Origin: a virus
Taxonomy: Duplodnaviria > Heunggongvirae > Uroviricota > Caudoviricetes
Direction: 5' to 3' (one strand)
Length of the DNA: 25,763 nucleotides
Virus record (IMG/VR): IMGVR_UViG_2778261381_000004
Span: 1 to 25,763 of that record
How positions within the stretch are numbered: position 1 is the first letter of the stretch; each line of letters opens with the position of its first letter. This document shows, in pieces, positions 2,462 through 16,871 of this stretch. A program made the position numbers and the translations under genes. Under the pieces are notes generated by a model. It was not told the DNA's origin, ran no database searches, and was given only the letters and a program-made list of their open reading frames with translations.

Positions 2462-4168
2462 TTAATGATTGAGTATTTTATTAACACGCAGCTTATTAAG
2501 TGTTGATTTTGAAGCAACTTCCTCCAAAGCTTCTATTGCTTTATCAGTGATGCTCTTCTGTTCGTCTGTCGGGTGTTGCATACCCTTGAACTTGAGCATA
2601 GTCTCTTCTACTAAATTCAAAGCATCCTGATCACAGGATAATATCCAGTTTACGTAATCATCTTTAGAAAAACTGTTAAGAATATTCACATCACTATGGT
2701 TAAATCTTCCACCAGCTATTTTTTTTATAATTTTATCTAAGTTATAGTCATCTGGATTTCTATCTTTCAATTTTTTTTCAATTCTGAAACCTAATTCTTC
2801 ATTTCCGAAGATCTCTACTCGCAAAGAATTAAATGTAGCATACGCATTGTCTTTATTAACAAAAGCATCTGCATATGCCTCTATAATATTATTACAATCT
2901 CTATCCAATTTGATTAGGACATTTATTAAACCTACGAACTGTCCAATTGGTATACGCAACAGACTATCGTTAATTACGCGCTCAATTTGAAAAATAAACT
3001 CTGATTCATTATCTTTAAAAGAGTTTCTAAAAACATCCCAAATTTTATAAACCTCACATAAAACCCTATTATCTCTATATTGTTCATTTTTTTCTTTTAT
3101 TATATTTAGAATATTGCTTTCAGAAGACACATAACCGTTCTTAAGGTAAAAATCTATATCATCATCGAAAGCACTTTCTGCTCGTTCATAAATAATATCA
3201 AGGCTATTAACAAATGAATATACAGAGTTAACTTCTTCCTTTTCATCTTTATCATCTAACATATAGTCGAATGCATGTATATTTTTGATTGACTCCTTAA
3301 ATGAAGCATAATCAACGCTAGGAACACCAAAATAGTAAACCACTGAAAATAAGACCAATCTATTAATAAAACTTTCTCTAACCTTATCCTCTGCTAACTT
3401 TAGCACATCTCTAAATATAACTAGAGATGATTTTATTTTATTTAATATTCTAATGTTTTTGATGTTTAAATCATTTGCTAGGTTTTTTAACAAAAGAAAA
3501 TCAGGGTCAGTCTCATAAAAAACTTTTCTTAAGTTTTTCTCAGGCGTGGGATCGTATTTTATTTCCACATCAATTATTTTTTCTCTATACTCTAAAAACT
3601 GTTGTTGTGCAGTTTCTTCATGTAAGTTATCTTCATTTAATATTAGAACAACCTTGCAATTTTTTCTTCTTGCCAACTCATCAATTACCCCCATAATCTC
3701 TTTAATTTCTAGCGCACTACCTTTTCGTTCAATATCATCAATGCAAACCAAATAATTATTAACAAATTTATACTCAAGAGATGACAGCAGATTATCAGTT
3801 TTGAACCCAAAAAAATCGTTCTTTCCAAAATGTATTAAAAATTTTGACAAGGAGTTGTATTTCAACCATCCCCAAAACCCATTTCTATAACGAATCATAG
3901 TTCGATCCGTTTCAGATAAAATCAGTTCTTTATATTTCTTTTCATTAATTGGTGTGGCACAATGATAAAGAGCTTTTTTAATGTCTCCAATAGAATTTAT
4001 TCCAAACAAAGAAACATATGAATATGCATTAAAATCTAATTTTTTAGAATGTTTAGTATAAAAGCTATTCCAATAATGCGTTTTACCTACTCCCCAATTT
4101 CCTTTTATGACAGCAACCCGATGATCTGAGTCCAAAAAATTTTTTAAAAATACTTCTATCGATTCCAT
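2462..4168 (-). CDS. KAP-family P-loop NTPase, candidate accessory (moron) or defence gene
   Basis: 568 aa ORF. Walker A GNWGVGKT near the N-terminus and Walker B LVCIDDIER match the KAP NTPase signatures (G-x-W-G-x-G-K-S/T and hhhhDD-x-R). The gene is visibly far more AT-rich than its neighbours. No transmembrane segment is obvious. Confidence 0.6.
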   Translation of the reverse strand: MESIEVFLKNFLDSDHRVAVIKGNWGVGKTHYWNSFYTKHSKKLDFNAYSYVSLFGINSIGDIKKALYHCATPINEKKYKELILSETDRTMIRYRNGFWGWLKYNSLSKFLIHFGKNDFFGFKTDNLLSSLEYKFVNNYLVCIDDIERKGSALEIKEIMGVIDELARRKNCKVVLILNEDNLHEETAQQQFLEYREKIIDVEIKYDPTPEKNLRKVFYETDPDFLLLKNLANDLNIKNIRILNKIKSSLVIFRDVLKLAEDKVRESFINRLVLFSVVYYFGVPSVDYASFKESIKNIHAFDYMLDDKDEKEEVNSVYSFVNSLDIIYERAESAFDDDIDFYLKNGYVSSESNILNIIKEKNEQYRDNRVLCEVYKIWDVFRNSFKDNESEFIFQIERVINDSLLRIPIGQFVGLINVLIKLDRDCNNIIEAYADAFVNKDNAYATFNSLRVEIFGNEELGFRIEKKLKDRNPDDYNLDKIIKKIAGGRFNHSDVNILNSFSKDDYVNWILSCDQDALNLVEETMLKFKGMQHPTDEQKSITDKAIEALEEVASKSTLNKLRVNKILNH

Positions 4169-8018: not shown

Positions 8019-11000
8019 TCAGTTACTTGTTGCCCCAACAGTACCTGCAAATTTCAGCCATTGACCTGACGGACTTCTATTACTACGGTAGTGATAAACG
8101 AGGATTGCGTTTGTAATCCCACCATAGTCAGCTTTGTGTGACGTCGTTAAACGAATTGTATAATCACCGTTAGGTAGATTAAAAACTTCGATTATAGATT
8201 CTGCTAATTCTACAGCACCAAATCCCGTTATATTGTTGATACTGCCAGCATTGAATCCCATAGCATCGCCAAAGCCAATCCAATAACTTTTGCTAAACGC
8301 CCCATTTGATTTTAGGTGGCTAATGAATGCGGACAAGCTCATGCCCATATCCCCACCTGAAACAGAGGAAGTTCGCACAGTCATACTTGGAAGAGCACTG
8401 CTCTTCACATAGGAACTTAGAAGGTTTGTTACCTCTGTTTTCGTGTAAGCATTAAGGTTAGCCGCAGTCAAAGTTATATCGGCAGAGCCATCAAACGCCA
8501 CACCAGCAATTTTCCTTGCTGTCTGCAATTTTGTGGCGGTTGCGGCATTACCAGTAGTGTTCTGGTTCCCATCTGCATTCACACCTGGAATGCTGTCTTT
8601 TTTAGTATATATCTGAGTCCAGTCCTCTTCGAACCCATAGCCATCACGTGATGAACGGTAATACAATCCACCATTTTTATAATGCGCTCGGATTTGGAGA
8701 GTCCGACAACTACCTACGCCTATATAAAAATTTGCAACGATATAAGAATCCCCGGAGCGTGTAACATTATACGCACCTGATTCGGCATTCCACGGGACCG
8801 CACCACTAGCATCGGCATAAGTTCCAGTAGCGCGTCGAGCAAAAGCAGATACATTTGCAGCTGTTAGTGTTATATCAGCAGAACCATCAAAAGACACGCC
8901 GCTTATTTTTCTAGCAGTTTGCAACTTCGTAGCTGTTGAAGCATTACCGTTCAAACTACCATTTACGCCACCAGTAACATTTAGTCCATTACCAATGGAC
9001 ACAGCACCGCTGGTATTATTAATTGTAATAGGTCGCAAACCGTTCCATGAACCTAATGTGTCTCCTGATGCTGTTAGCATGAAATATGTGTTCGATCCAT
9101 CATTACGGATAAAGAACCCAAAGCTACCGTAAGCAATGCGGAAACCATTTGCATATTTTGAAACGATCTCACCAGAAGACGTTAATCCGCCAGTTAACGC
9201 TCCTCCAGATAGTGGTAAAGCTCCGACATCAGCCGCAGTAGGCTTGTTTTTAGTGTTATACGCTCTGCGCCATCCTGGTGAATAGCTCGTCCCGTTAAAT
9301 ACATAGATAAACTCCGCATTAGTGAGAGCACCAGAGACACTCGCCGTTGTGGCCGTTGTTATACGGATCGTATAATTGTTTGAGCTACTACCGTTATTAA
9401 ATACCTCTATAACAGCTCCTGCTAATGGAATAACGCCACAACCAGTTTCACTATTTGGTATGGTTGCACTATTGGCATAGGCCCACGCACATCGAGCAAT
9501 CCATGACTTTGTGTTAAATGCTCCATTATTTTGCAATAACGTCACTAACTGTGCTGTTGTTATTGCTCCGCCATTACTTCCTGTAGTTAACCAACCAGTA
9601 GGAGATGCCGGGCAACCTATATTTGCTGGCGACAAGGAAATATTTGCCGAGCCGTCAAACGACACCCCATTGATAGTACGCGCAGTCTGCAACTTCGTAG
9701 CAGTAGCCGCGTTGCCCGTTGTATTCTGATTACCAGTCGTATTAACACCTGGCAAATTAATATTCGCAGTACCATCAAAGCTCACGCCGCCGATAGTTCT
9801 TGCCGTCTGAAGTTTTGTAGCAGTTGCAGCATTACCAGTGGTGTTCTGATTACCCGTAGTGTTTACACCTGGAAGGTTAATATTTGCAGAACCGTCGAAA
9901 ACAACTCCACCGATAGATCTTGCCGTCTGCAATTTCGTGGCTGTACTTGCATTACCATTCAATGAACCAGTTAATCCACCTGTAACAGACAACGGACCTG
10001 AAACTGTTCCTCCGGTTGTTGGCAGTGCTCCAATATCTGATGGTGTAGGTTTCTGATGTGAGCTATACATCGTATAAACAACACCATCGGTAACGCTGGA
10101 AGGCTTACTCGCTGAATATGTTGGCGAGGTATAAATAGAAACTGTCGCATTTGCAGTACAATCCCAATGGATATTTACACGAGTCGCATAATTGCCAATC
10201 TCAACGTAAATATCATATGTATCGCCGGATGTGTTGATCCAGGCGAAATTCGTTAATCCGACAGCTGTACGCTTCCACAAAGCACCTGTAATCCCTTTGG
10301 GGTTTCCATTGCCTGCTCGTAGAACCAGTTCTGAAATGCCTGCCTGATGTGGGGAGCCGACGTTGTAACCAGCGCCACCAATCAATGCGATGTAAACGAT
10401 GGAACTCGCTTGTGGCATGGTAACCGTAGCCAGTTTGAACCACCCTGCCCCGCCAGAGAAAGACATCGTTACTGAATTTAAAGTACCAATATCTTTCGGC
10501 GTTAATGTGATATCCGCAGTCAGTGCTTTACCGTTAACTTTTCGGTTAGATGGCACCCTGCTATTCGCATTGTCATTGGCTGCTTTAACTGCTTTTGGCG
10601 TTGCGGCCAGCGATTCACTGGTGCTGTCGACAGCACTGCTAAGTTTCACAACACCTTTAGTTGTAAGGCTTGCGTCTTCCATCGCAACTGCACCGGCAAT
10701 CTCTTCAGCACGATCAGCAGCAGCTTCCGCACGGGTCGCAGCGGATTCAGCAGCAGTTTTGCTCTGAGATGCTGCCGTCGCACTGCCTGCCGCCTCTGTT
10801 GCTTTCGTGGATGCCGTCGTGGCACTGCCCTTCGCTGCTGACGCCTGTCTGGTCGCCTCATCTTTTGAAGCAGACGCAGATGATGCCGATGACGCCGCCG
10901 AACTGGCGGACGATGCGGCAGCCGTTTTTGAGGATTCTGCGCTGGTTTCCGACGCTTTCGCGTTCGTTTCGGATGTCTTCGCTGCGGAAGCAGACCTCGC

Positions 11001-12044
11001 TGCTGCGCTAGCCTGTTCAGTGGCTTCGCCAGCCTTCGTTGTGGCTGTTGAAGCAGACGATGCGGCACTTTCTGCCGATTTTCCGGCGGCGGTGGCACTG
11101 GCTGAGGCCTGCCCGGCACTTGTTGACGCGGCACTGGCAGACGACGCAGCCGCTGTTTTTGAGCCTGCCGCAGCTGAGGCACTCTGTGCTGCTGCCGTCT
11201 CAGAAGACTTAGCGTTCGTCTCGGACGTTTTTGCCGCCTTCGCGGAATTGCCTGCCGCTGTTGCCGAGGAGGCTGCACTACTGGCGCTCAAGGATGCGTT
11301 CGTTTCTGATGATTTCGCTGCCTCTTTTGAGGCCGCCGCATCCCGGGCTGAGGTGGCAGCTTCTGACGCTTTCGTGGTCGCGGTGGATGCAGAAGTGGCT
11401 GCTGATTGTTGTGACGCTGCGGCATTCGTTTCAGATTTTTTCGCAGCAGTTGCACTCGCACTTGCGGCACTTTGTGAGGATGCCGCAGCGGATGCACTTT
11501 GAGACGCTTGAGAGGCTTTTTCTCCAGCGGTATTGGCGCTTTCTGCTGCTGCGGCAGCACTGGCCGCTGCCTCACGAGCTTTGTCGCCAGCAGCATCAAT
11601 CGCGTCAGTGTTATTTTTATACCACTCAACGTTTTCGTTGTGCTCGTTGACGATCTGCATTAGCGGCTTAACGGTTACTTCTGTACCGTCTTCACGCTCG
11701 ATTGTCACCTCATCCAGAGCAGTCAACCAACTGCGCATAGACTTGGAATCAGCCGACATACGCGACATTAGTGCTGTAAAGCGCGCGCTAAACTGTGTTA
11801 AGTCGCCTTCATAGGTCGTAATGATTCGGCACGGAACCTCAGACTGAGTTTCGCCGGTATAAGGTTCTGAGAGAACAATATTCGTATCGCTTATTACGCG
11901 CTTGATCTCATACAGCTTATTGTCGGGGCCAATGACGATCATCCCCGGCAACACACCATTAGCTGTTACGTTCCAGGCTGTCCCTGCCCCAACCAGAGTA
12001 TTGCTACCCTGTGTAAATGTGATAGTACCTTCCCTGTACCACAT
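8019..12044 (-). CDS. Side tail fibre protein
   Basis: 1341 aa. Conserved tail-fibre-like N-terminus, then a ~300 aa Ala/Ser/Thr-rich tract with repeated KxSETNA units, then at least five copies of a GN(A/Q)xTATKLQTAR-I-GV-FDGSA-I-L repeat. Confidence 0.85.
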   Translation of the reverse strand: MWYREGTITFTQGSNTLVGAGTAWNVTANGVLPGMIVIGPDNKLYEIKRVISDTNIVLSEPYTGETQSEVPCRIITTYEGDLTQFSARFTALMSRMSADSKSMRSWLTALDEVTIEREDGTEVTVKPLMQIVNEHNENVEWYKNNTDAIDAAGDKAREAAASAAAAAESANTAGEKASQASQSASAAASSQSAASASATAAKKSETNAAASQQSAATSASTATTKASEAATSARDAAASKEAAKSSETNASLSASSAASSATAAGNSAKAAKTSETNAKSSETAAAQSASAAAGSKTAAASSASAASTSAGQASASATAAGKSAESAASSASTATTKAGEATEQASAAARSASAAKTSETNAKASETSAESSKTAAASSASSAASSASSASASKDEATRQASAAKGSATTASTKATEAAGSATAASQSKTAAESAATRAEAAADRAEEIAGAVAMEDASLTTKGVVKLSSAVDSTSESLAATPKAVKAANDNANSRVPSNRKVNGKALTADITLTPKDIGTLNSVTMSFSGGAGWFKLATVTMPQASSIVYIALIGGAGYNVGSPHQAGISELVLRAGNGNPKGITGALWKRTAVGLTNFAWINTSGDTYDIYVEIGNYATRVNIHWDCTANATVSIYTSPTYSASKPSSVTDGVVYTMYSSHQKPTPSDIGALPTTGGTVSGPLSVTGGLTGSLNGNASTATKLQTARSIGGVVFDGSANINLPGVNTTGNQNTTGNAATATKLQTARTIGGVSFDGTANINLPGVNTTGNQNTTGNAATATKLQTARTINGVSFDGSANISLSPANIGCPASPTGWLTTGSNGGAITTAQLVTLLQNNGAFNTKSWIARCAWAYANSATIPNSETGCGVIPLAGAVIEVFNNGSSSNNYTIRITTATTASVSGALTNAEFIYVFNGTSYSPGWRRAYNTKNKPTAADVGALPLSGGALTGGLTSSGEIVSKYANGFRIAYGSFGFFIRNDGSNTYFMLTASGDTLGSWNGLRPITINNTSGAVSIGNGLNVTGGVNGSLNGNASTATKLQTARKISGVSFDGSADITLTAANVSAFARRATGTYADASGAVPWNAESGAYNVTRSGDSYIVANFYIGVGSCRTLQIRAHYKNGGLYYRSSRDGYGFEEDWTQIYTKKDSIPGVNADGNQNTTGNAATATKLQTARKIAGVAFDGSADITLTAANLNAYTKTEVTNLLSSYVKSSALPSMTVRTSSVSGGDMGMSLSAFISHLKSNGAFSKSYWIGFGDAMGFNAGSINNITGFGAVELAESIIEVFNLPNGDYTIRLTTSHKADYGGITNAILVYHYRSNRSPSGQWLKFAGTVGATSN
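8460..9960 (-). repeat. Tail-fibre repeat copies within the fibre gene
   Basis: The protein unit NASTATKLQTAR...FDGSANINLPGVNTTGNQNTTG recurs with near-identical DNA (for example ...gcagcattaccagtggtgttctgattacc...) around 8500-8600, 8880-8960 and 9640-9960. Coordinates approximate. Confidence 0.6.
10700..11600 (-). repeat. Low-complexity Ala/Ser-rich coding tract of the tail fibre
   Basis: Corresponds to roughly residues 150-445 of the fibre protein. It generates several long spurious ORFs on the opposite strand and in other frames. Confidence 0.6.
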
Positions 12045-12137: not shown

Positions 12138-15100
12138 TCACAGACGGCCAATTCTTACTCGTAGGACGTTGTTATCGTCATAAACGTCAATCCGCTGACC
12201 ATTTATAACCAATCTCCCATTGCCGCCGCTATTACCGTTGATCTCAAGCGTTCCATTTTTGCCGAACCGCCATCCAGATCTACCGCTAACAAAATTGGTA
12301 GATTGCAGATCGCCTACTTTTGCATTGGTGATTGTGCCATCCTTGATATACGCTCCATTCATATAGGCGATACTGTTTTCGATAACAAATGGCGTTGTGA
12401 TCTTCCCGTTAACAGAGTTGACCAAACCAAACCTGTCCGCCTGAACCAAAAACTGAGATAGCCCAGTGGTGTCAATACCAAGCGCAATACCGGCAACATA
12501 CTTCTGCCCTCCGCTCGTTGAAGTCTCCATTTTCAACGTCCACGCGGTTGATACTTTTTTGTTGGTATCAGCAATAGCTGTTGCCTGCTGTTGAATTGTC
12601 GCGGTATTTCCATCCACCTCTGCTTTCAGAGTATCGATTCGCCCACTCAGAGCATTATCTGCCTGCGTTCTCGCTGTCGTTTCAGTTGTGACCGCCGCAG
12701 AAATGTTGGCTGCTGTTTGAGACTCTAAGTTTGTGATTTGAGTCGCCAATGCAGCATCTTGCTCTGTACGCGTTTTCGTTTCGGTTGCTACAGCCGCTTT
12801 AATATCCTCTTTGTATTGAGAGGTCAGCTTGGTGATCTGAGACGACAACGCCGAGTCAGCATCAGTTCGAGCCTGCGTTTCAACTGCAACGGCCGCACTA
12901 ATATCTTTCGCTGTCTGTGCTTTTAAACTTGAAACCTCTTTTGTTAAAGCGGTATCACCATCTGCACGAGCCGTTGTTTCTCTGGCAAGAGACGCCTCGA
13001 GATCATTAGCTTTTGCTGTAAGAGACGTAATCTGGGTAGACAATGCACTATCGGCATCAGTCCTTGCTTTTGTCTCTACAGCAACCGCTGCGGCAATATC
13101 AGTTCCGGTTTGTGCTCGCAGGCTGTTAATTTCTCGTGAGAGCGCCTGGTCAGCACTTGCTCTGGCCTCCTGCTCCTGAGTGATGGCCGCGGATATATCA
13201 CCGTCAACCTTTGACTGAAGCTGGTTTATTTGTTTGGCTAACGCAGAGTCCCCGCTTGCTCGGGCCTCCTGCTCACTACGTATTGCAGCAGAAATATCAT
13301 CATCAACCTTTGCCTGAAGTTGGGTGATCTGGCTTGCCAGAGCCGAATCTTCCGTTGCTCGGGCTTCTTGCTCTTCCTTAATGGCTGCGACGATATCGTT
13401 GCTTACTTTCGACTCAAGCTGAGTGATCTGTGTCGTCAGAGCTTCATCGGCAGATGTACGAGCCTCCTGCTCTGTACTAATCGCCGCGCTGATATCTCCT
13501 TCAAACTTAGATTGCAGCTGAGTGACACGCTTTGCCAACGCTTCATCGCCATCGGCACGAGCGGTGGACTCTTCCAGAATACTGGCCTTAATGTCTTCGC
13601 CAATTTCTACGCGAATTTCCTCAACCTTCGTGGCCATTGCAGACATATCATCAGCAAAGGTTTTCTGTGTTGTTGCGATCTTCGCGTTATTGACCATCTG
13701 CTTGTGCTGGTCTTCATCTTGACGAAGAGCCAGGTCAATATTTGTTTTGGCTAACGCCTCAATGTTCGTAGTCAGTTCTGCACTGGCACGATCGACCTCT
13801 GCAACCGTCTTTTTCATTTCTTCAACGGCAGCGGAGCTTTCCTCTACCGTTGACTGCAACACTTCCAGTTGTTTAGCGTTTGCAGCATCGCCTTCAACAC
13901 GAGCCTCGCTTTCCTTAGCAATAAGAGCCGCCGCTTCATCTCTTGCAGCCTTTATTGCCTCGACTGTATTAGCGAGAGCTTTATCGTGTTCAGATACGGT
14001 GTTTTCGATTTCAACAATTGCAGCATCAGTAGCATCAATTTTTTCAAACGCTTCATTGACCTTGTCGATCGTTGCCGAAACCTCACCTTTAAGCTCGGTT
14101 TGTGCGTTCTCCAAAGCATCGCTACGCTCGTTGAATTTTATTTCAAAATCCGCGAGGTTATCGCTGAACTGCTTATCTAATTCAGCTATATCTTCCTTAA
14201 CGTCGTTTACCGCCCCCTCCAAAGATTCGACGCTCTGGTTGATATGCTCATTTAACTCGTCAACTGCTTCTTGAGAGGCTTTGCTGTTGATGTCCTCAAG
14301 CAGAGCCTGACCAAGCTCGGAAGATGTAATTTTGCCAGTCAGGAACGACAGTACATCGCGAGTTGTCGCCTCTGTACCCAAGTTTGAGTTCGGAGGACTT
14401 AACATACCTCGCTTGTTCGATGCTCGAACCCAGTAATACCACGTTTCGCTATCCCCAAGACCAGCATGTGTAAAGGTGGTGCTTGCAGACTCTGCGATCA
14501 GTTTCGCCGTATCCAGATTGTTGGTCTGGGATGCGTAAACATTAATGTGATCAAGGTCTACCGAATCTGGATTAACCCAATTCAGTATCACATTACGATA
14601 GTCTCCAACGGCCGTTAATGACGTTGGGGCATCCGGCGGTGTCATTGTGCCCAACACCTGATAAACGGTACTGATAATCTCTGTTTTTTTACCGTTGAAT
14701 GAAACCGCATACAGCTGGAAGTCGTAGCGTCCATTCTCCGCGACATTAACGATTTCGTATTGCTCTTCGGTTACACGCGCCGATTGCCAGTTCGATACAT
14801 TGTTTTCATCAGAACGTCGCCAACTGATCCAATACTCTGGAGATTTCCCTTCCCATGTTGCAGTCAGTTTTACTGACAGGTTGCCCGGGCTTGAGAGATA
14901 AGTCCCTTCAGTGATTTGCAGATTAGATGGCTTGGAGTAAGTTGGGTCCAATACCGTCGTATTCTGCGGGATCAGCGTTGCACCATTGTCGATTGCCTCA
15001 TATTTAGACGGATTGTTCTCAACAGCGGTGATGTCAAAGCTACCCGGCGTTTCCCCCTGCGCGATGTTAACGATGCGAACGCGCATAGGTTCGAGGTCTG

Positions 15101-16871
15101 GTTCTGTAATAGTCCAGACGCCGTTCAAAACAGGCGTTTCAGCCGAAGACAGGGCTTTTGAAAACGTAACTTTTGTTATATTTTCGCCAGTTTCAAGAAC
15201 ATCGCGTTCAACGATTTTGCCTTCCTGATTCAGTATTCGAATAAAGCAGCCGCCTTTGGCTAACGACACAGGCGCATCGAGTGTGACGCTGTTTTTGGTA
15301 AACGCCACAATTCGACCTGAGTTACGTTTGCCTGCGCGATATTTGTTCTGAATCAGAACGGTTTCACCAGGCATCAGAAATGACGCGTCTAAGCCGGCAG
15401 TAAATGTAATTACATCCGACTCCATTCTGGCGGTATATAAAAGCCACAAACCAACTCGGTGAGCCTGCCCTCGGCTTGTACAGCCAAATGCTACGACTTC
15501 TGTTTTACGCTCACCATAACGGCGCATTGCGTCCTGATCTTCGACGTACTCGATGTTTTGCTTATAACCGTCCTCCTTGTTGTTGTAGGTTACGAGCGCA
15601 ACGGATGGGCGATCTTTACGCGCAGAACCTTTATAGGTAAACAATCCATCTTTGACGTTAGAGTTGGTAAACATCATTACCGGATCTGATGGGCTATCCT
15701 GCATGATGTTAACCATCCCACCAGCCCAAAACACCATGCCGCGGAATGCTCCGGCAATATCCTGAATTAGCCGGTATGCGTCCTGTCGACTGGTGATCTG
15801 CGTATTGATTGCAAAGCGTTTCTCTTTGCCACCAAAGCCATCATCGACCTCTTCGTCACAATATCGACCAATCTGGTACAACTGGCCAAGGTCAATCATA
15901 GATTCCGACACATACTGACCAAGGCCATATCGAGCATTGGTCAGCAAATCAAAGAGAATCCACGCGGGGTTCGAAGAAGACAACAGCTTAAAAGTGCCAT
16001 CCCATACCCCAGCGTAAGTGTTACTGGACTCGTTATAGTTTGAAGGTACTCGAATTTTTAGGCCACGCACCAGATAAGAGCGAGATGGCATGGTGCTGCC
16101 GAATTGCTCAGAGTTTACCTTCAATCCAACCAAAACAGAGTTTGGATAGTTCATCGGTGTATCGACAATTTCCCCGATTGAATCCACCCATGTATCGTTA
16201 TAGAGATACTGGCTACTGTTATCATCGGTAATACGGACCACACGAACCTTGTATGCTCGTCCAGGCTTAGGCAGCTTCAGCTCATAGCTACGGTAATAAA
16301 CGCCGGTCTTCTTTGCTGTTAGCTTAATGCCAACGCTTTTTTCACCTTCAGCGACCACATCTACAAATGTTGAGTCGCCATTTGCTATCTGGAACTTGTA
16401 CTCAACAGTCGTACCGTTCGTGTCACCAGTTTTTTTATCTATGCTTCGCAAAGAAGGAAACTTCATGATGACACGAACCCGATCAGCTTCATCGTTATCG
16501 ATTGAAACCGTTACATAATGTGTTTTTTTTAACTGGATATTGACGGATTTAGGCGTTTCAACGAAATCAAAGCCAGACATTGGAGTCTGGTCTTGTGAAC
16601 CGTCGCGAAAATCCCATGTGATTCCGCTGAAGTTGGAGGAACCGTCTTCATTTACAATCGGCAGATCGTCGATAAAAATAGATCTTGCGCCATTTACTAA
16701 GCCGCCAATTACCCCTTCCCCAAGAAGATCGAGGATAGCGGCCATTGCACGAGAATTTACGGTATCGTCGGCTTCAACCGGTGTACGGCTGGAGCTTTTG
16801 CTGCTTTTTTTACCACCCGCACCGGCAATAAACAGCGGTAGCTTTTTCTTCTTGAACTGTTCCATGTTCAA
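12138..16871 (-). CDS. J: Host-specificity / central tail fibre protein, lambda J-like, with a long coiled-coil insertion
   Basis: 1577 aa. Blocks such as NYPNSVLVGLKVNSEQFGS...LVRGLKIRVPSNYNESSNTYAGVWDGTFK, AFGCTSRGQAHRVGLWLL and QKYVAGIALGID...SQFLV match lambda gpJ as I recall it. A ~570 aa block of ~33-aa tandem repeats lies between conserved J segments. Confidence 0.9.
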   Translation of the reverse strand: MNMEQFKKKKLPLFIAGAGGKKSSKSSSRTPVEADDTVNSRAMAAILDLLGEGVIGGLVNGARSIFIDDLPIVNEDGSSNFSGITWDFRDGSQDQTPMSGFDFVETPKSVNIQLKKTHYVTVSIDNDEADRVRVIMKFPSLRSIDKKTGDTNGTTVEYKFQIANGDSTFVDVVAEGEKSVGIKLTAKKTGVYYRSYELKLPKPGRAYKVRVVRITDDNSSQYLYNDTWVDSIGEIVDTPMNYPNSVLVGLKVNSEQFGSTMPSRSYLVRGLKIRVPSNYNESSNTYAGVWDGTFKLLSSSNPAWILFDLLTNARYGLGQYVSESMIDLGQLYQIGRYCDEEVDDGFGGKEKRFAINTQITSRQDAYRLIQDIAGAFRGMVFWAGGMVNIMQDSPSDPVMMFTNSNVKDGLFTYKGSARKDRPSVALVTYNNKEDGYKQNIEYVEDQDAMRRYGERKTEVVAFGCTSRGQAHRVGLWLLYTARMESDVITFTAGLDASFLMPGETVLIQNKYRAGKRNSGRIVAFTKNSVTLDAPVSLAKGGCFIRILNQEGKIVERDVLETGENITKVTFSKALSSAETPVLNGVWTITEPDLEPMRVRIVNIAQGETPGSFDITAVENNPSKYEAIDNGATLIPQNTTVLDPTYSKPSNLQITEGTYLSSPGNLSVKLTATWEGKSPEYWISWRRSDENNVSNWQSARVTEEQYEIVNVAENGRYDFQLYAVSFNGKKTEIISTVYQVLGTMTPPDAPTSLTAVGDYRNVILNWVNPDSVDLDHINVYASQTNNLDTAKLIAESASTTFTHAGLGDSETWYYWVRASNKRGMLSPPNSNLGTEATTRDVLSFLTGKITSSELGQALLEDINSKASQEAVDELNEHINQSVESLEGAVNDVKEDIAELDKQFSDNLADFEIKFNERSDALENAQTELKGEVSATIDKVNEAFEKIDATDAAIVEIENTVSEHDKALANTVEAIKAARDEAAALIAKESEARVEGDAANAKQLEVLQSTVEESSAAVEEMKKTVAEVDRASAELTTNIEALAKTNIDLALRQDEDQHKQMVNNAKIATTQKTFADDMSAMATKVEEIRVEIGEDIKASILEESTARADGDEALAKRVTQLQSKFEGDISAAISTEQEARTSADEALTTQITQLESKVSNDIVAAIKEEQEARATEDSALASQITQLQAKVDDDISAAIRSEQEARASGDSALAKQINQLQSKVDGDISAAITQEQEARASADQALSREINSLRAQTGTDIAAAVAVETKARTDADSALSTQITSLTAKANDLEASLARETTARADGDTALTKEVSSLKAQTAKDISAAVAVETQARTDADSALSSQITKLTSQYKEDIKAAVATETKTRTEQDAALATQITNLESQTAANISAAVTTETTARTQADNALSGRIDTLKAEVDGNTATIQQQATAIADTNKKVSTAWTLKMETSTSGGQKYVAGIALGIDTTGLSQFLVQADRFGLVNSVNGKITTPFVIENSIAYMNGAYIKDGTITNAKVGDLQSTNFVSGRSGWRFGKNGTLEINGNSGGNGRLVINGQRIDVYDDNNVLRVRIGRL
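12640..14300 (-). repeat. Tandem coiled-coil repeats (~99 nt / 33 aa period) within the J-like gene
   Basis: Protein repeats of the form DISAAI..EQEARA..DSALA.QI.QLQSKV, about 12 or more copies, also visible as periodic DNA similarity. Coordinates approximate. Confidence 0.6.

Follow-up and report, generated by a model that had tools for sequence, protein, structure and literature searches.

A long, repeat-built coiled-coil shaft predicted in the J-like central tail fibre of an SSU5-like phage-plasmid

The stretch of DNA analysed herein (the window; 25,763 nucleotides, positions 1 to 25,763 of IMG/VR virus record IMGVR_UViG_2778261381_000004) carries on its minus strand a 4.7-kb gene for a J-like central tail fibre, in which a very long, predicted alpha-helical segment stands between the body of the protein and its C-terminal tip. 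This gene is 99.2% identical at the nucleotide level to that of Escherichia phage Cyrano (phage-plasmid pLF82 of E. coli LF82) and 78% identical to that of Salmonella phage SSU5, and the window is an SSU5-like phage-plasmid. The counterpart gene of Cyrano, CYRAN_20, is labelled 'tail host specificity protein J', and the genes of Cyrano are ordered tape measure, M, L, K, I and J, followed by a side tail fibre of 1341 amino acid residues (aa) and the lysis genes. The J protein of the window shows 100% aa identity with that of plasmid MF554642.1, and is encoded in PLSDB in 103 plasmid records at an identity of at least 99% and in 160 records at an identity of at least 95%. Pfam recognised in it FNIII-A_GpJ (E 1.5e-29), Phage-tail_3 (E 7e-34), fn3 and Phage_Tail_Tip. 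The hub domains, the gene order from tape measure through M-L-K-I and the tip domain are all found as in the lambda gpJ-like family, to which an earlier reading of this DNA from its letters alone (the sequence-only reading) had assigned the protein. The open reading frame (ORF) called by program on the minus strand spans 12138..16871 and opens mechanically at a TTG (16871), two codons before the ATG annotated in Cyrano (16865; window 16863-16871). The features of the gene are as follows.

12138..16865, minus strand: gene encoding the J-like protein of the central tail fibre (tip attachment protein; 1575 aa and a stop codon); identified by ORF, Cyrano identity and Pfam.
14289..16865, minus strand: J body (aa 1-859), hub and FNIII domains; identified by blastp against lambda gpJ 2-835.
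14289-14354, minus strand: N-terminal half of the shaft helix, which closes the J body, VLSFLTGKITSSELGQALLEDI, aa 838-859.
12615..14288, minus strand: stretch of 558 aa absent from lambda (aa 860-1417), extended alpha-helical shaft (AHS), a predicted trimeric coiled coil.
13596..14288, minus strand: proximal, non-repetitive part of the shaft (aa 860-1090, 231 aa), with near-heptad periodicity.
12606..13595, minus strand: ten tandem units of 33 residues (one has 32), aa 1091-1420; identified by a unit hidden Markov model (HMM) and the lag-33 signal.
13212..13310, minus strand: the single unit (about aa 1186-1218) lacking in an E. coli variant, the P0001 class; identified by pairwise alignment.
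12141..12614, minus strand: beta-prism or central straight fibre domain (Phage_Tail_Tip), aa 1418-1575; identified by Pfam PF09327, blastp and AlphaFold2 (AF2).

The blastp comparison with lambda gpJ gave two blocks, one aligning aa 18-859 of the window protein with lambda 2-835 (31.5% identity, E 4e-118) and the other aligning aa 1418-1547 with lambda 839-971 (30%, E 5e-12). Between them lie 558 aa in the window and 3 in lambda, and the same is seen with the Pfam landmarks: fn3 ends at aa 826 and Phage_Tail_Tip follows about 600 residues further, while in lambda the two are 26 residues apart. The lambda AHS (residues 809-861) is known as a three-helix bundle between FNIII-2 and the central straight fibre (PMC11101478). 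Since the alignment breaks at 835/839, in the middle of this helix (lambda has there ELT, then EDNASRLEEF...), what appears to be an insertion is an elongation of the AHS. The sequence-only reading had placed an insertion of roughly 570 aa at 12640-14300 and described it as lacking in lambda, both of which are essentially right by our measurement; its statement that lambda matches the N-terminal two thirds holds as to the presence of an N-terminal and a C-terminal block, but the N-terminal block makes up 54%.

The shaft has a composition of 0 Pro, 0 Trp and 0 Cys, with 18.5% Ala and 11% Glu (561 residues), and its hydrophobic residues recur with a period of 3.56 residues in the proximal part (power 162, against a best shuffle peak of 52 +/- 12.5) and 3.65 in the repeat part (power 106, against 50 +/- 11 in shuffles), z being about 5-9 for both. 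AF2, applied as a monomer model to aa 800-1575 with 19 homologues, gave helices at aa 853-1042 and 1046-1407, at a mean predicted local distance difference test score (pLDDT) of 62, as expected because a single chain of an obligate trimer was modelled; the helix break is at aa 1043-1045 and the lowest pLDDT at about aa 1000-1050. For a short construct (aa 1288-1575), the helix at aa 1289-1405 was predicted with pLDDT 90-98, followed by beta-strands. Thus one helix with a single 3-residue break (aa 853-1407) lies between the last FNIII domain and the beta-prism, as in the fibres with extended coiled-coil shafts, in agreement with the coiled-coil stalk that the earlier reading had predicted. In the Foldseek search of PDB with the 776-residue model, the long helix of low pLDDT was uninformative and only the C-terminal domain was matched, by the fibres of SU10 and lambda.

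The distal part of the shaft consists of the ten tandem units, each of which scores 46-60 bits against the unit HMM, with the consensus DIsAAI..E..AR...D.AL..qI..L.s.v.. and with columns E9, R13, D17, A19, L20 and L27 invariant; one degenerate unit lies apart at aa 980-1008. The mean BLOSUM62 score at lag 33 is 2.18 for the repeats against -0.29 +/- 0.11 in shuffles (z = 23), and the proximal 231 aa carry no lag-33 signal (z = 0.2). The period noticed by the sequence-only reading is accordingly confirmed, but its count of about a dozen units is replaced by ten plus the degenerate one, and the proximal 231 aa are not repetitive. At the DNA level the units are only 41-66% identical to one another, and because of this divergence Tandem Repeats Finder detected no more than 2.2 copies of a 99-nt period; the array was resolved by autocorrelation at the protein level together with the unit HMM, and a repeat search at the DNA level under-reports it. 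Between units, 64% of identical residues are encoded by different codons, which together with the invariant columns points to an old array under purifying selection. To keep the seams in register a whole number of turns is needed per 33 residues, and from 33/9 = 3.67 we infer that each unit is made of three hendecads, with a period of about 11/3.

Among the J proteins of the SSU5 group, the shaft takes discrete lengths of 558, 525, 517, 409, 369, 332, 292 and 212 residues, and the sampled members carry, respectively, 10, 9, 9, 6, 5, 4, 3 and 1 tandem units. An E. coli protein of the P0001 class is 100% identical over 743 aa except for an in-register gap of 33 aa; the flanks of this missing unit share only short microhomology, and the longest exact in-register run is 10 nt. 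The unit number therefore does vary among homologues, as had been foreseen from the letters. Using the 558 residues as the query, tblastn found related coils in 224 phage records; the matches listed include the J-like or central-fibre proteins of T1-like coliphages, of Klebsiella and Pseudomonas phages, and of mEp021. Measured by Pfam landmarks, the shaft is about 190 aa long in T1, 330 in Klebsiella Webervirus, 400 in SSU5 and 745 in mEp021. We also searched 1.84 billion cluster representatives with the tip domain; from the best 150 of 1578 matches, 47 full-length J-like proteins were obtained, in which the gap between J body and tip ranges from about 0 to 3208 residues (median 622), is at least as long as that of the window in 25 and contains an equivalent coiled coil in 45. 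One representative carries 21 tandem units of 33 residues, and another 19 units of 32 residues. This spread indicates that the shaft is an ordinary feature of the clade, of which lambda is the short extreme. The segment is thus peculiar with respect to lambda, as the sequence-only reading had it, but not with respect to homologues in general, for T1 gp33, the F-type pyocin fibre and 45 of the 47 representatives carry an equivalent coil. Several Pfam hits on these relatives (DUF4795, SF-assemblin, Apolipoprotein and SlyX) were dismissed as generic coiled-coil noise.

Some individual relatives deserve description. In the SSU5-like phage-plasmid of Klebsiella phage vB_KpnS_p4727 (PQ492289.1; L011:321-12452), the J homologue reaches 4044 aa, and between FNIII and the tip (3776-3906) its coiled coil alternates with about 10 globular domains of about 150 aa each, only one of which is recognised by Pfam (ILEI-like, 3074-3151); cluster representatives are up to 4233 aa long. 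The J homologue of plasmid OW968257.1 (35304-37880) is labelled 'Chromosome partition protein Smc', probably a misannotation driven by the coiled coil. Several dozen database sequences with 98-100% identity to this J protein (P0081-P0111 and P0115-P0118) are marked 'partial' and stop at aa 943-1090, within the non-repetitive part of the shaft, suggesting that draft assemblies often break there, although the DNA repeats are diverged. In plasmid NZ_CP028433.1 (47664-53701) a J gene otherwise 99.6% identical is split by an insertion sequence (IS) of the IS1203 family, and this phage-plasmid is probably tail-defective as a result.

A sequence search of PDB with aa 800-1575 identified 9l9p_S, a 'putative tail fiber protein' of 1172 aa (E 4e-30), and 25vf_A, the central fibre of F2-pyocin (E 1e-24), and in both cases the aligned part takes in the repeat region; in the latter, aa 1240-1547 of the window protein align with residues 882-1193 of the chain, coil on coil and prism on prism. 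The length and name of 9l9p_S fit gp33 of phage T1, and gp33 translated from the T1 genome contains 33-residue units of the same type. We are thus highly confident that the stretch is an extended AHS coiled-coil shaft homologous to those of the T1 and F-pyocin fibres. The shaft would be a trimer, as suggested by the three-fold tail tip and the solved homologues. Among these, the solved shaft of F-type pyocin is a coiled coil of three strands and bears three side fibres, the N-terminal OB and stem region of each side fibre docking on a kink of the shaft (PMC13455828; bioRxiv 10.64898/2026.02.24.707460). Residues 821-1172 of T1 gp33 could not be resolved owing to their flexibility; in the AF3 model this part is an alpha/beta fibre some 37 nm long (PMC11945409).

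The tip that follows the shaft is supported by PF09327 (E 1.4e-41, aa 1423-1557), by AF2, which places beta-strands from aa 1409 onward, and by Foldseek, in which the C-terminal model matches fibre chains of lambda (8xcj_F, 8xci) and the tip fibre of SU10. The best lambda matches are chains of the open state (8xcj_F, 8xci_F/Z). AF2 also gave beta structure for aa 1409-1449 (given as window 12597-12740), which are equivalent to lambda gpJ 839-861, a helix in the closed lambda tip and beta structure once LamB is bound; this prediction and the open-state matches fit a switch of fold, but are suggestive only. Pfam found no match in the window protein to the receptor-binding domain Ig_GpJ_C (PF12421), for which lambda gpJ scores 4.5e-74, and the protein ends about 18 aa past the tip domain. 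The distal receptor-binding region of the sequence-only reading is therefore borne out as far as a beta-prism tip is present, but with Ig_GpJ_C absent its receptor-binding part is not evident. When relatives were compared past the tip domain (proteins P0031-P0040, P0075 and P0082), the proteins of the window, SSU5 and T1 were found to end there, those of Yersinia pestis (pMT1-type) and Salmonella (pHCM2-type) to carry about 110-140 extra residues, and some Citrobacter proteins to carry an Ig_GpJ_C of the lambda type.

Directly downstream of J, after a gap of 93 nt, lies the gene for the side tail fibre, with the following features.

8019..12044, minus strand: side tail fibre gene, 1341 aa; identified by Cyrano annotation and Pfam Gp34_trimer.
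11727-12041, minus strand: N-terminal domain of the side fibre, aa 2-106, resembling the shaft-docking (OB and stem) region of the F2-pyocin side fibre.

The resemblance was detected by phmmer against residues 3-104 of PDB 25ve_A (E 0.0028, a weak match of 26.6 bits) and by a small, shallow profile against the docking domain of PyoF13 (E 4.1e-5), for which a word-indexed search had supplied 22 close relatives, mostly partial. This likeness is weak evidence that the extended shaft may serve as a platform for the side fibres. The same N-terminus also resembles, more weakly, a distal tail protein (23gd_B). Elsewhere the side fibre contains an Ala/Ser-rich stretch of low complexity of about 330 aa (aa about 150-480), a 120-nt tandem repeat at 9697-9957 with five copies of GN(A/Q)(S/N)T(A/T)..ATKLQTAR, and a T4 Gp34_trimer domain at aa 901-1008.

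Changes of fold have been described for fibres of this class. When LamB binds, the lambda AHS turns over by some 180 degrees and residues 841-861, at its C-terminal end, become beta structure (PMC11101478). For F7 pyocin it was reported in 2026 that the whole 163-residue coil changes into a triangular beta-prism upon target binding, that mutations destabilising the prism abolish killing, and that the coil carries a conserved 11-residue motif, SxSxxMxxLxS, with Asp/Glu-Arg pairs four residues apart; of 24 central fibres from siphophages, 21 were predicted to switch in a similar way (PMC12874032). The main text of that report makes no mention of 'SSU5', 'repeat' or 'heptad', and our literature searches found no account of a repeat array or of copy-number variation in SSU5-like elements. 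In the repeat array (aa 1091-1420) the motif occurs 26 times in either orientation against 4.8 +/- 2.1 in shuffles, none of 2000 shuffles reaching 26, though the counts are inflated, the units being homologous copies and not independent; the proximal part has 6 against 2.2 in shuffles. Each unit matches the motif in reverse at AAI..E..ARA and forward at AR...D.AL.. and AL..qI..L.s, and the spacing of E9, R13 and D17 fits in all ten units the salt-bridge rule of He et al. (PMC12874032).

On these grounds we propose the following. The shaft would be a parallel three-chain coiled coil, about 82 nm long (555 residues x 0.148 nm), with the beta-prism tip held out in front of the tail cone, and the side fibres, products of the neighbouring gene, would dock on it. 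The coil form would be metastable in the motif-rich distal array at least, and perhaps in more of the shaft; receptor contact would then cause the array to refold from coil to beta-prism, seeded by the existing prism, shortening the fibre about three-fold to roughly 25 nm. Such shortening could draw the tail cone down onto the outer membrane and open the cone, so that tape measure and DNA are ejected; the reach, and possibly the stored energy, would depend on how many units are present. To this proposal as a whole, including the extended shaft, the projecting tip, the side-fibre dock and the metastable array, we assign a probability of roughly 0.7. Of its parts, the coil-to-prism switch in the window protein is held tentatively, at slightly less than even odds, and the docking of side fibres on the shaft is possible but a little more doubtful than the switch. 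A stronger form, in which the array is a modular spring of tunable copy number, each unit supplies three 11-residue prism strands and the whole shaft (330-555 residues per chain) refolds, seems to us unlikely.

Several observations weigh against this proposal, in addition to the inflation of the motif counts. The AF2 monomer gave the repeats as helix only, a result that tells neither for nor against the switch because a monomer cannot form the prism. The repeats of the window are hendecad-like (3.65) whereas the F-pyocin shaft is mainly heptad-based with one stutter, and He et al. note no such extensive switch in lambda and T5 (PMC12874032). The match of the side fibre to the pyocin docking domain is weak, as stated above, and J in the window is not followed by a gene for a small adhesin of the PA0642 or T1 kind: the 93-nt gap before the side fibre gene holds no PA0642-like gene, and the lysis genes follow the fibre. 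Negative-stain electron microscopy (EM) gave Cyrano a tail of 259 +/- 12 nm, where its tape measure predicts 230 nm, and the account of it mentions no long fibre at the tip (PMC9928086); a coil 2 nm thick could be missed, so that these images neither confirm nor exclude a thin fibre of 80 nm.

A simpler function for the shaft would be that of a static spacer, in which the coil holds the tip and side fibres away from the cone, for instance through O-antigen or capsule, without refolding and with a local trigger as in lambda. The helix-only prediction of the repeats, with pLDDT above 90, agrees with this, as do the function of lambda with a shaft of about 50 residues and the very wide range of shaft lengths in relatives (about 0 to 3208 aa), some of these shafts being broken up by globular domains that could not become part of a prism. 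The homologous shaft of F-pyocin, however, undergoes a switch that was observed and is essential, the fold-switch motif and R/D pairs are invariant in every unit, and a rigid rod of 80 nm would keep the cone off the membrane unless it were bent or refolded; we therefore regard a purely static spacer as doubtful. Somewhat less probable still is the suggestion that frequent recombination between units alters their copy number and thereby modulates host range; the sequence-only reading had likewise held variation by recombination to be likely and an effect on host range to be conceivable. The 1 to 10 units among SSU5-group proteins and the E. coli variant lacking exactly one unit accord with the suggestion, but with 41-66% nucleotide identity and a longest in-register run of 10 nt unequal homologous crossing-over should be infrequent, the J span is always 4722-4725 nt in the seven records listed of the 160 in PLSDB (at least 95% identity), apart from one with an IS, and the repeats are without a receptor-binding element.

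It is very improbable that the array was collapsed, expanded or mis-joined in assembly, or that the antisense ORFs are real genes. Many database entries are indeed 'partial' and cut in the coiled-coil part, and three plus-strand ORFs of 103-175 aa overlap the region; on the other hand the units are too diverged at the DNA level to collapse, the same 1575-aa protein recurs at an identity of at least 99% in the 103 plasmid records and in phage Cyrano, and the reading frame is unbroken, flanked on each side by homologous sequence. Antisense ORFs of like size occur also in the tape-measure and fibre genes, and those opposite J lie mostly outside the repeats; they are thus a matter of composition. 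Both the assembly artefact and the antisense genes were rejected on these grounds, namely unit divergence, plasmid records and antisense ORFs elsewhere. Two points of the sequence-only reading are thereby set aside: its concern about a collapsed array is not realistic, given the unit divergence and the spans of the seven PLSDB records listed, and the repeats do not explain the opposite-strand ORFs, which at 13320-14274 lie mostly in the non-repetitive part.

The proposal of a metastable, projecting shaft bears on a wider problem, as it is only now becoming clear where non-contractile tails obtain the energy to get through the outer membrane. If the spring switch is true, it would be two to three times the largest documented fold switch (163 residues, F7 pyocin), and SSU5-type phage-plasmids would set reach and stored energy through 1-10 units, with the shaft doubling as the dock for side fibres. 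The natural series of 1-10 units is the main value of the system, for it offers a way of testing whether reach, stored energy or host range is governed by the length of the shaft. The SSU5 family is widespread and clinically relevant, including pLF82/Cyrano of E. coli, pHCM2 of Salmonella, pMT1 of Yersinia and pKpn of Klebsiella. For annotation, the shaft explains the length of J, the mislabelling as 'Smc' or 'tail fiber', and the 'partial' entries in draft assemblies.

Compared with known systems, the shaft of the window is a long, repeat-built case of the already described class of central-fibre shafts. Lambda gpJ (8iyk, 8xcj) shares with it the N-terminal 835 residues, the ends of the AHS helix, the central straight fibre and the M-L-K-I-J order, but its AHS has about 50 residues without repeats, and it carries the C-terminal, LamB-binding Ig_GpJ_C (1001-1132) that the window protein is without. 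T1 gp33 agrees in domain order, in its C-terminal ending (...RV.IGRL) and in its 33-residue units, with a shaft of about 190 aa and 3 units against 558 aa and 10 units in the window; in T1-type phages, unlike the window, small receptor-binding proteins are encoded just downstream of J. The J proteins of SSU5, pHCM2, pMT1 and the Klebsiella pKpn type are the same protein with the shaft at the same position and 68-82% identity in the body, with shafts of 212-558 aa and 1-10 units and in some cases extra C-terminal modules, the 4044-aa Klebsiella protein having globular domains interleaved in its shaft. The central fibre of F-type pyocin (PyoF10 / PA0641; F7 CFP; 25vf) belongs to a tailocin and that of the window to a phage-plasmid; the pyocin shaft has 163-178 residues against about 555 and is heptad-based with one stutter, whereas the distal 330 aa in the window are regular 33-residue units with a period of 3.65, and the pyocin prism is capped by a separate adhesin, PA0642, of which no gene follows J in the window. 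Yet the two fibres agree in having a J-like hub, FNIII domains, a helical shaft and a beta-prism without a C-terminal receptor-binding domain, and in carrying SxSxxMxxLxS and Arg-Asp pairs; each is also encoded near a side fibre, the N-terminal domains of the two side fibres being possibly related.

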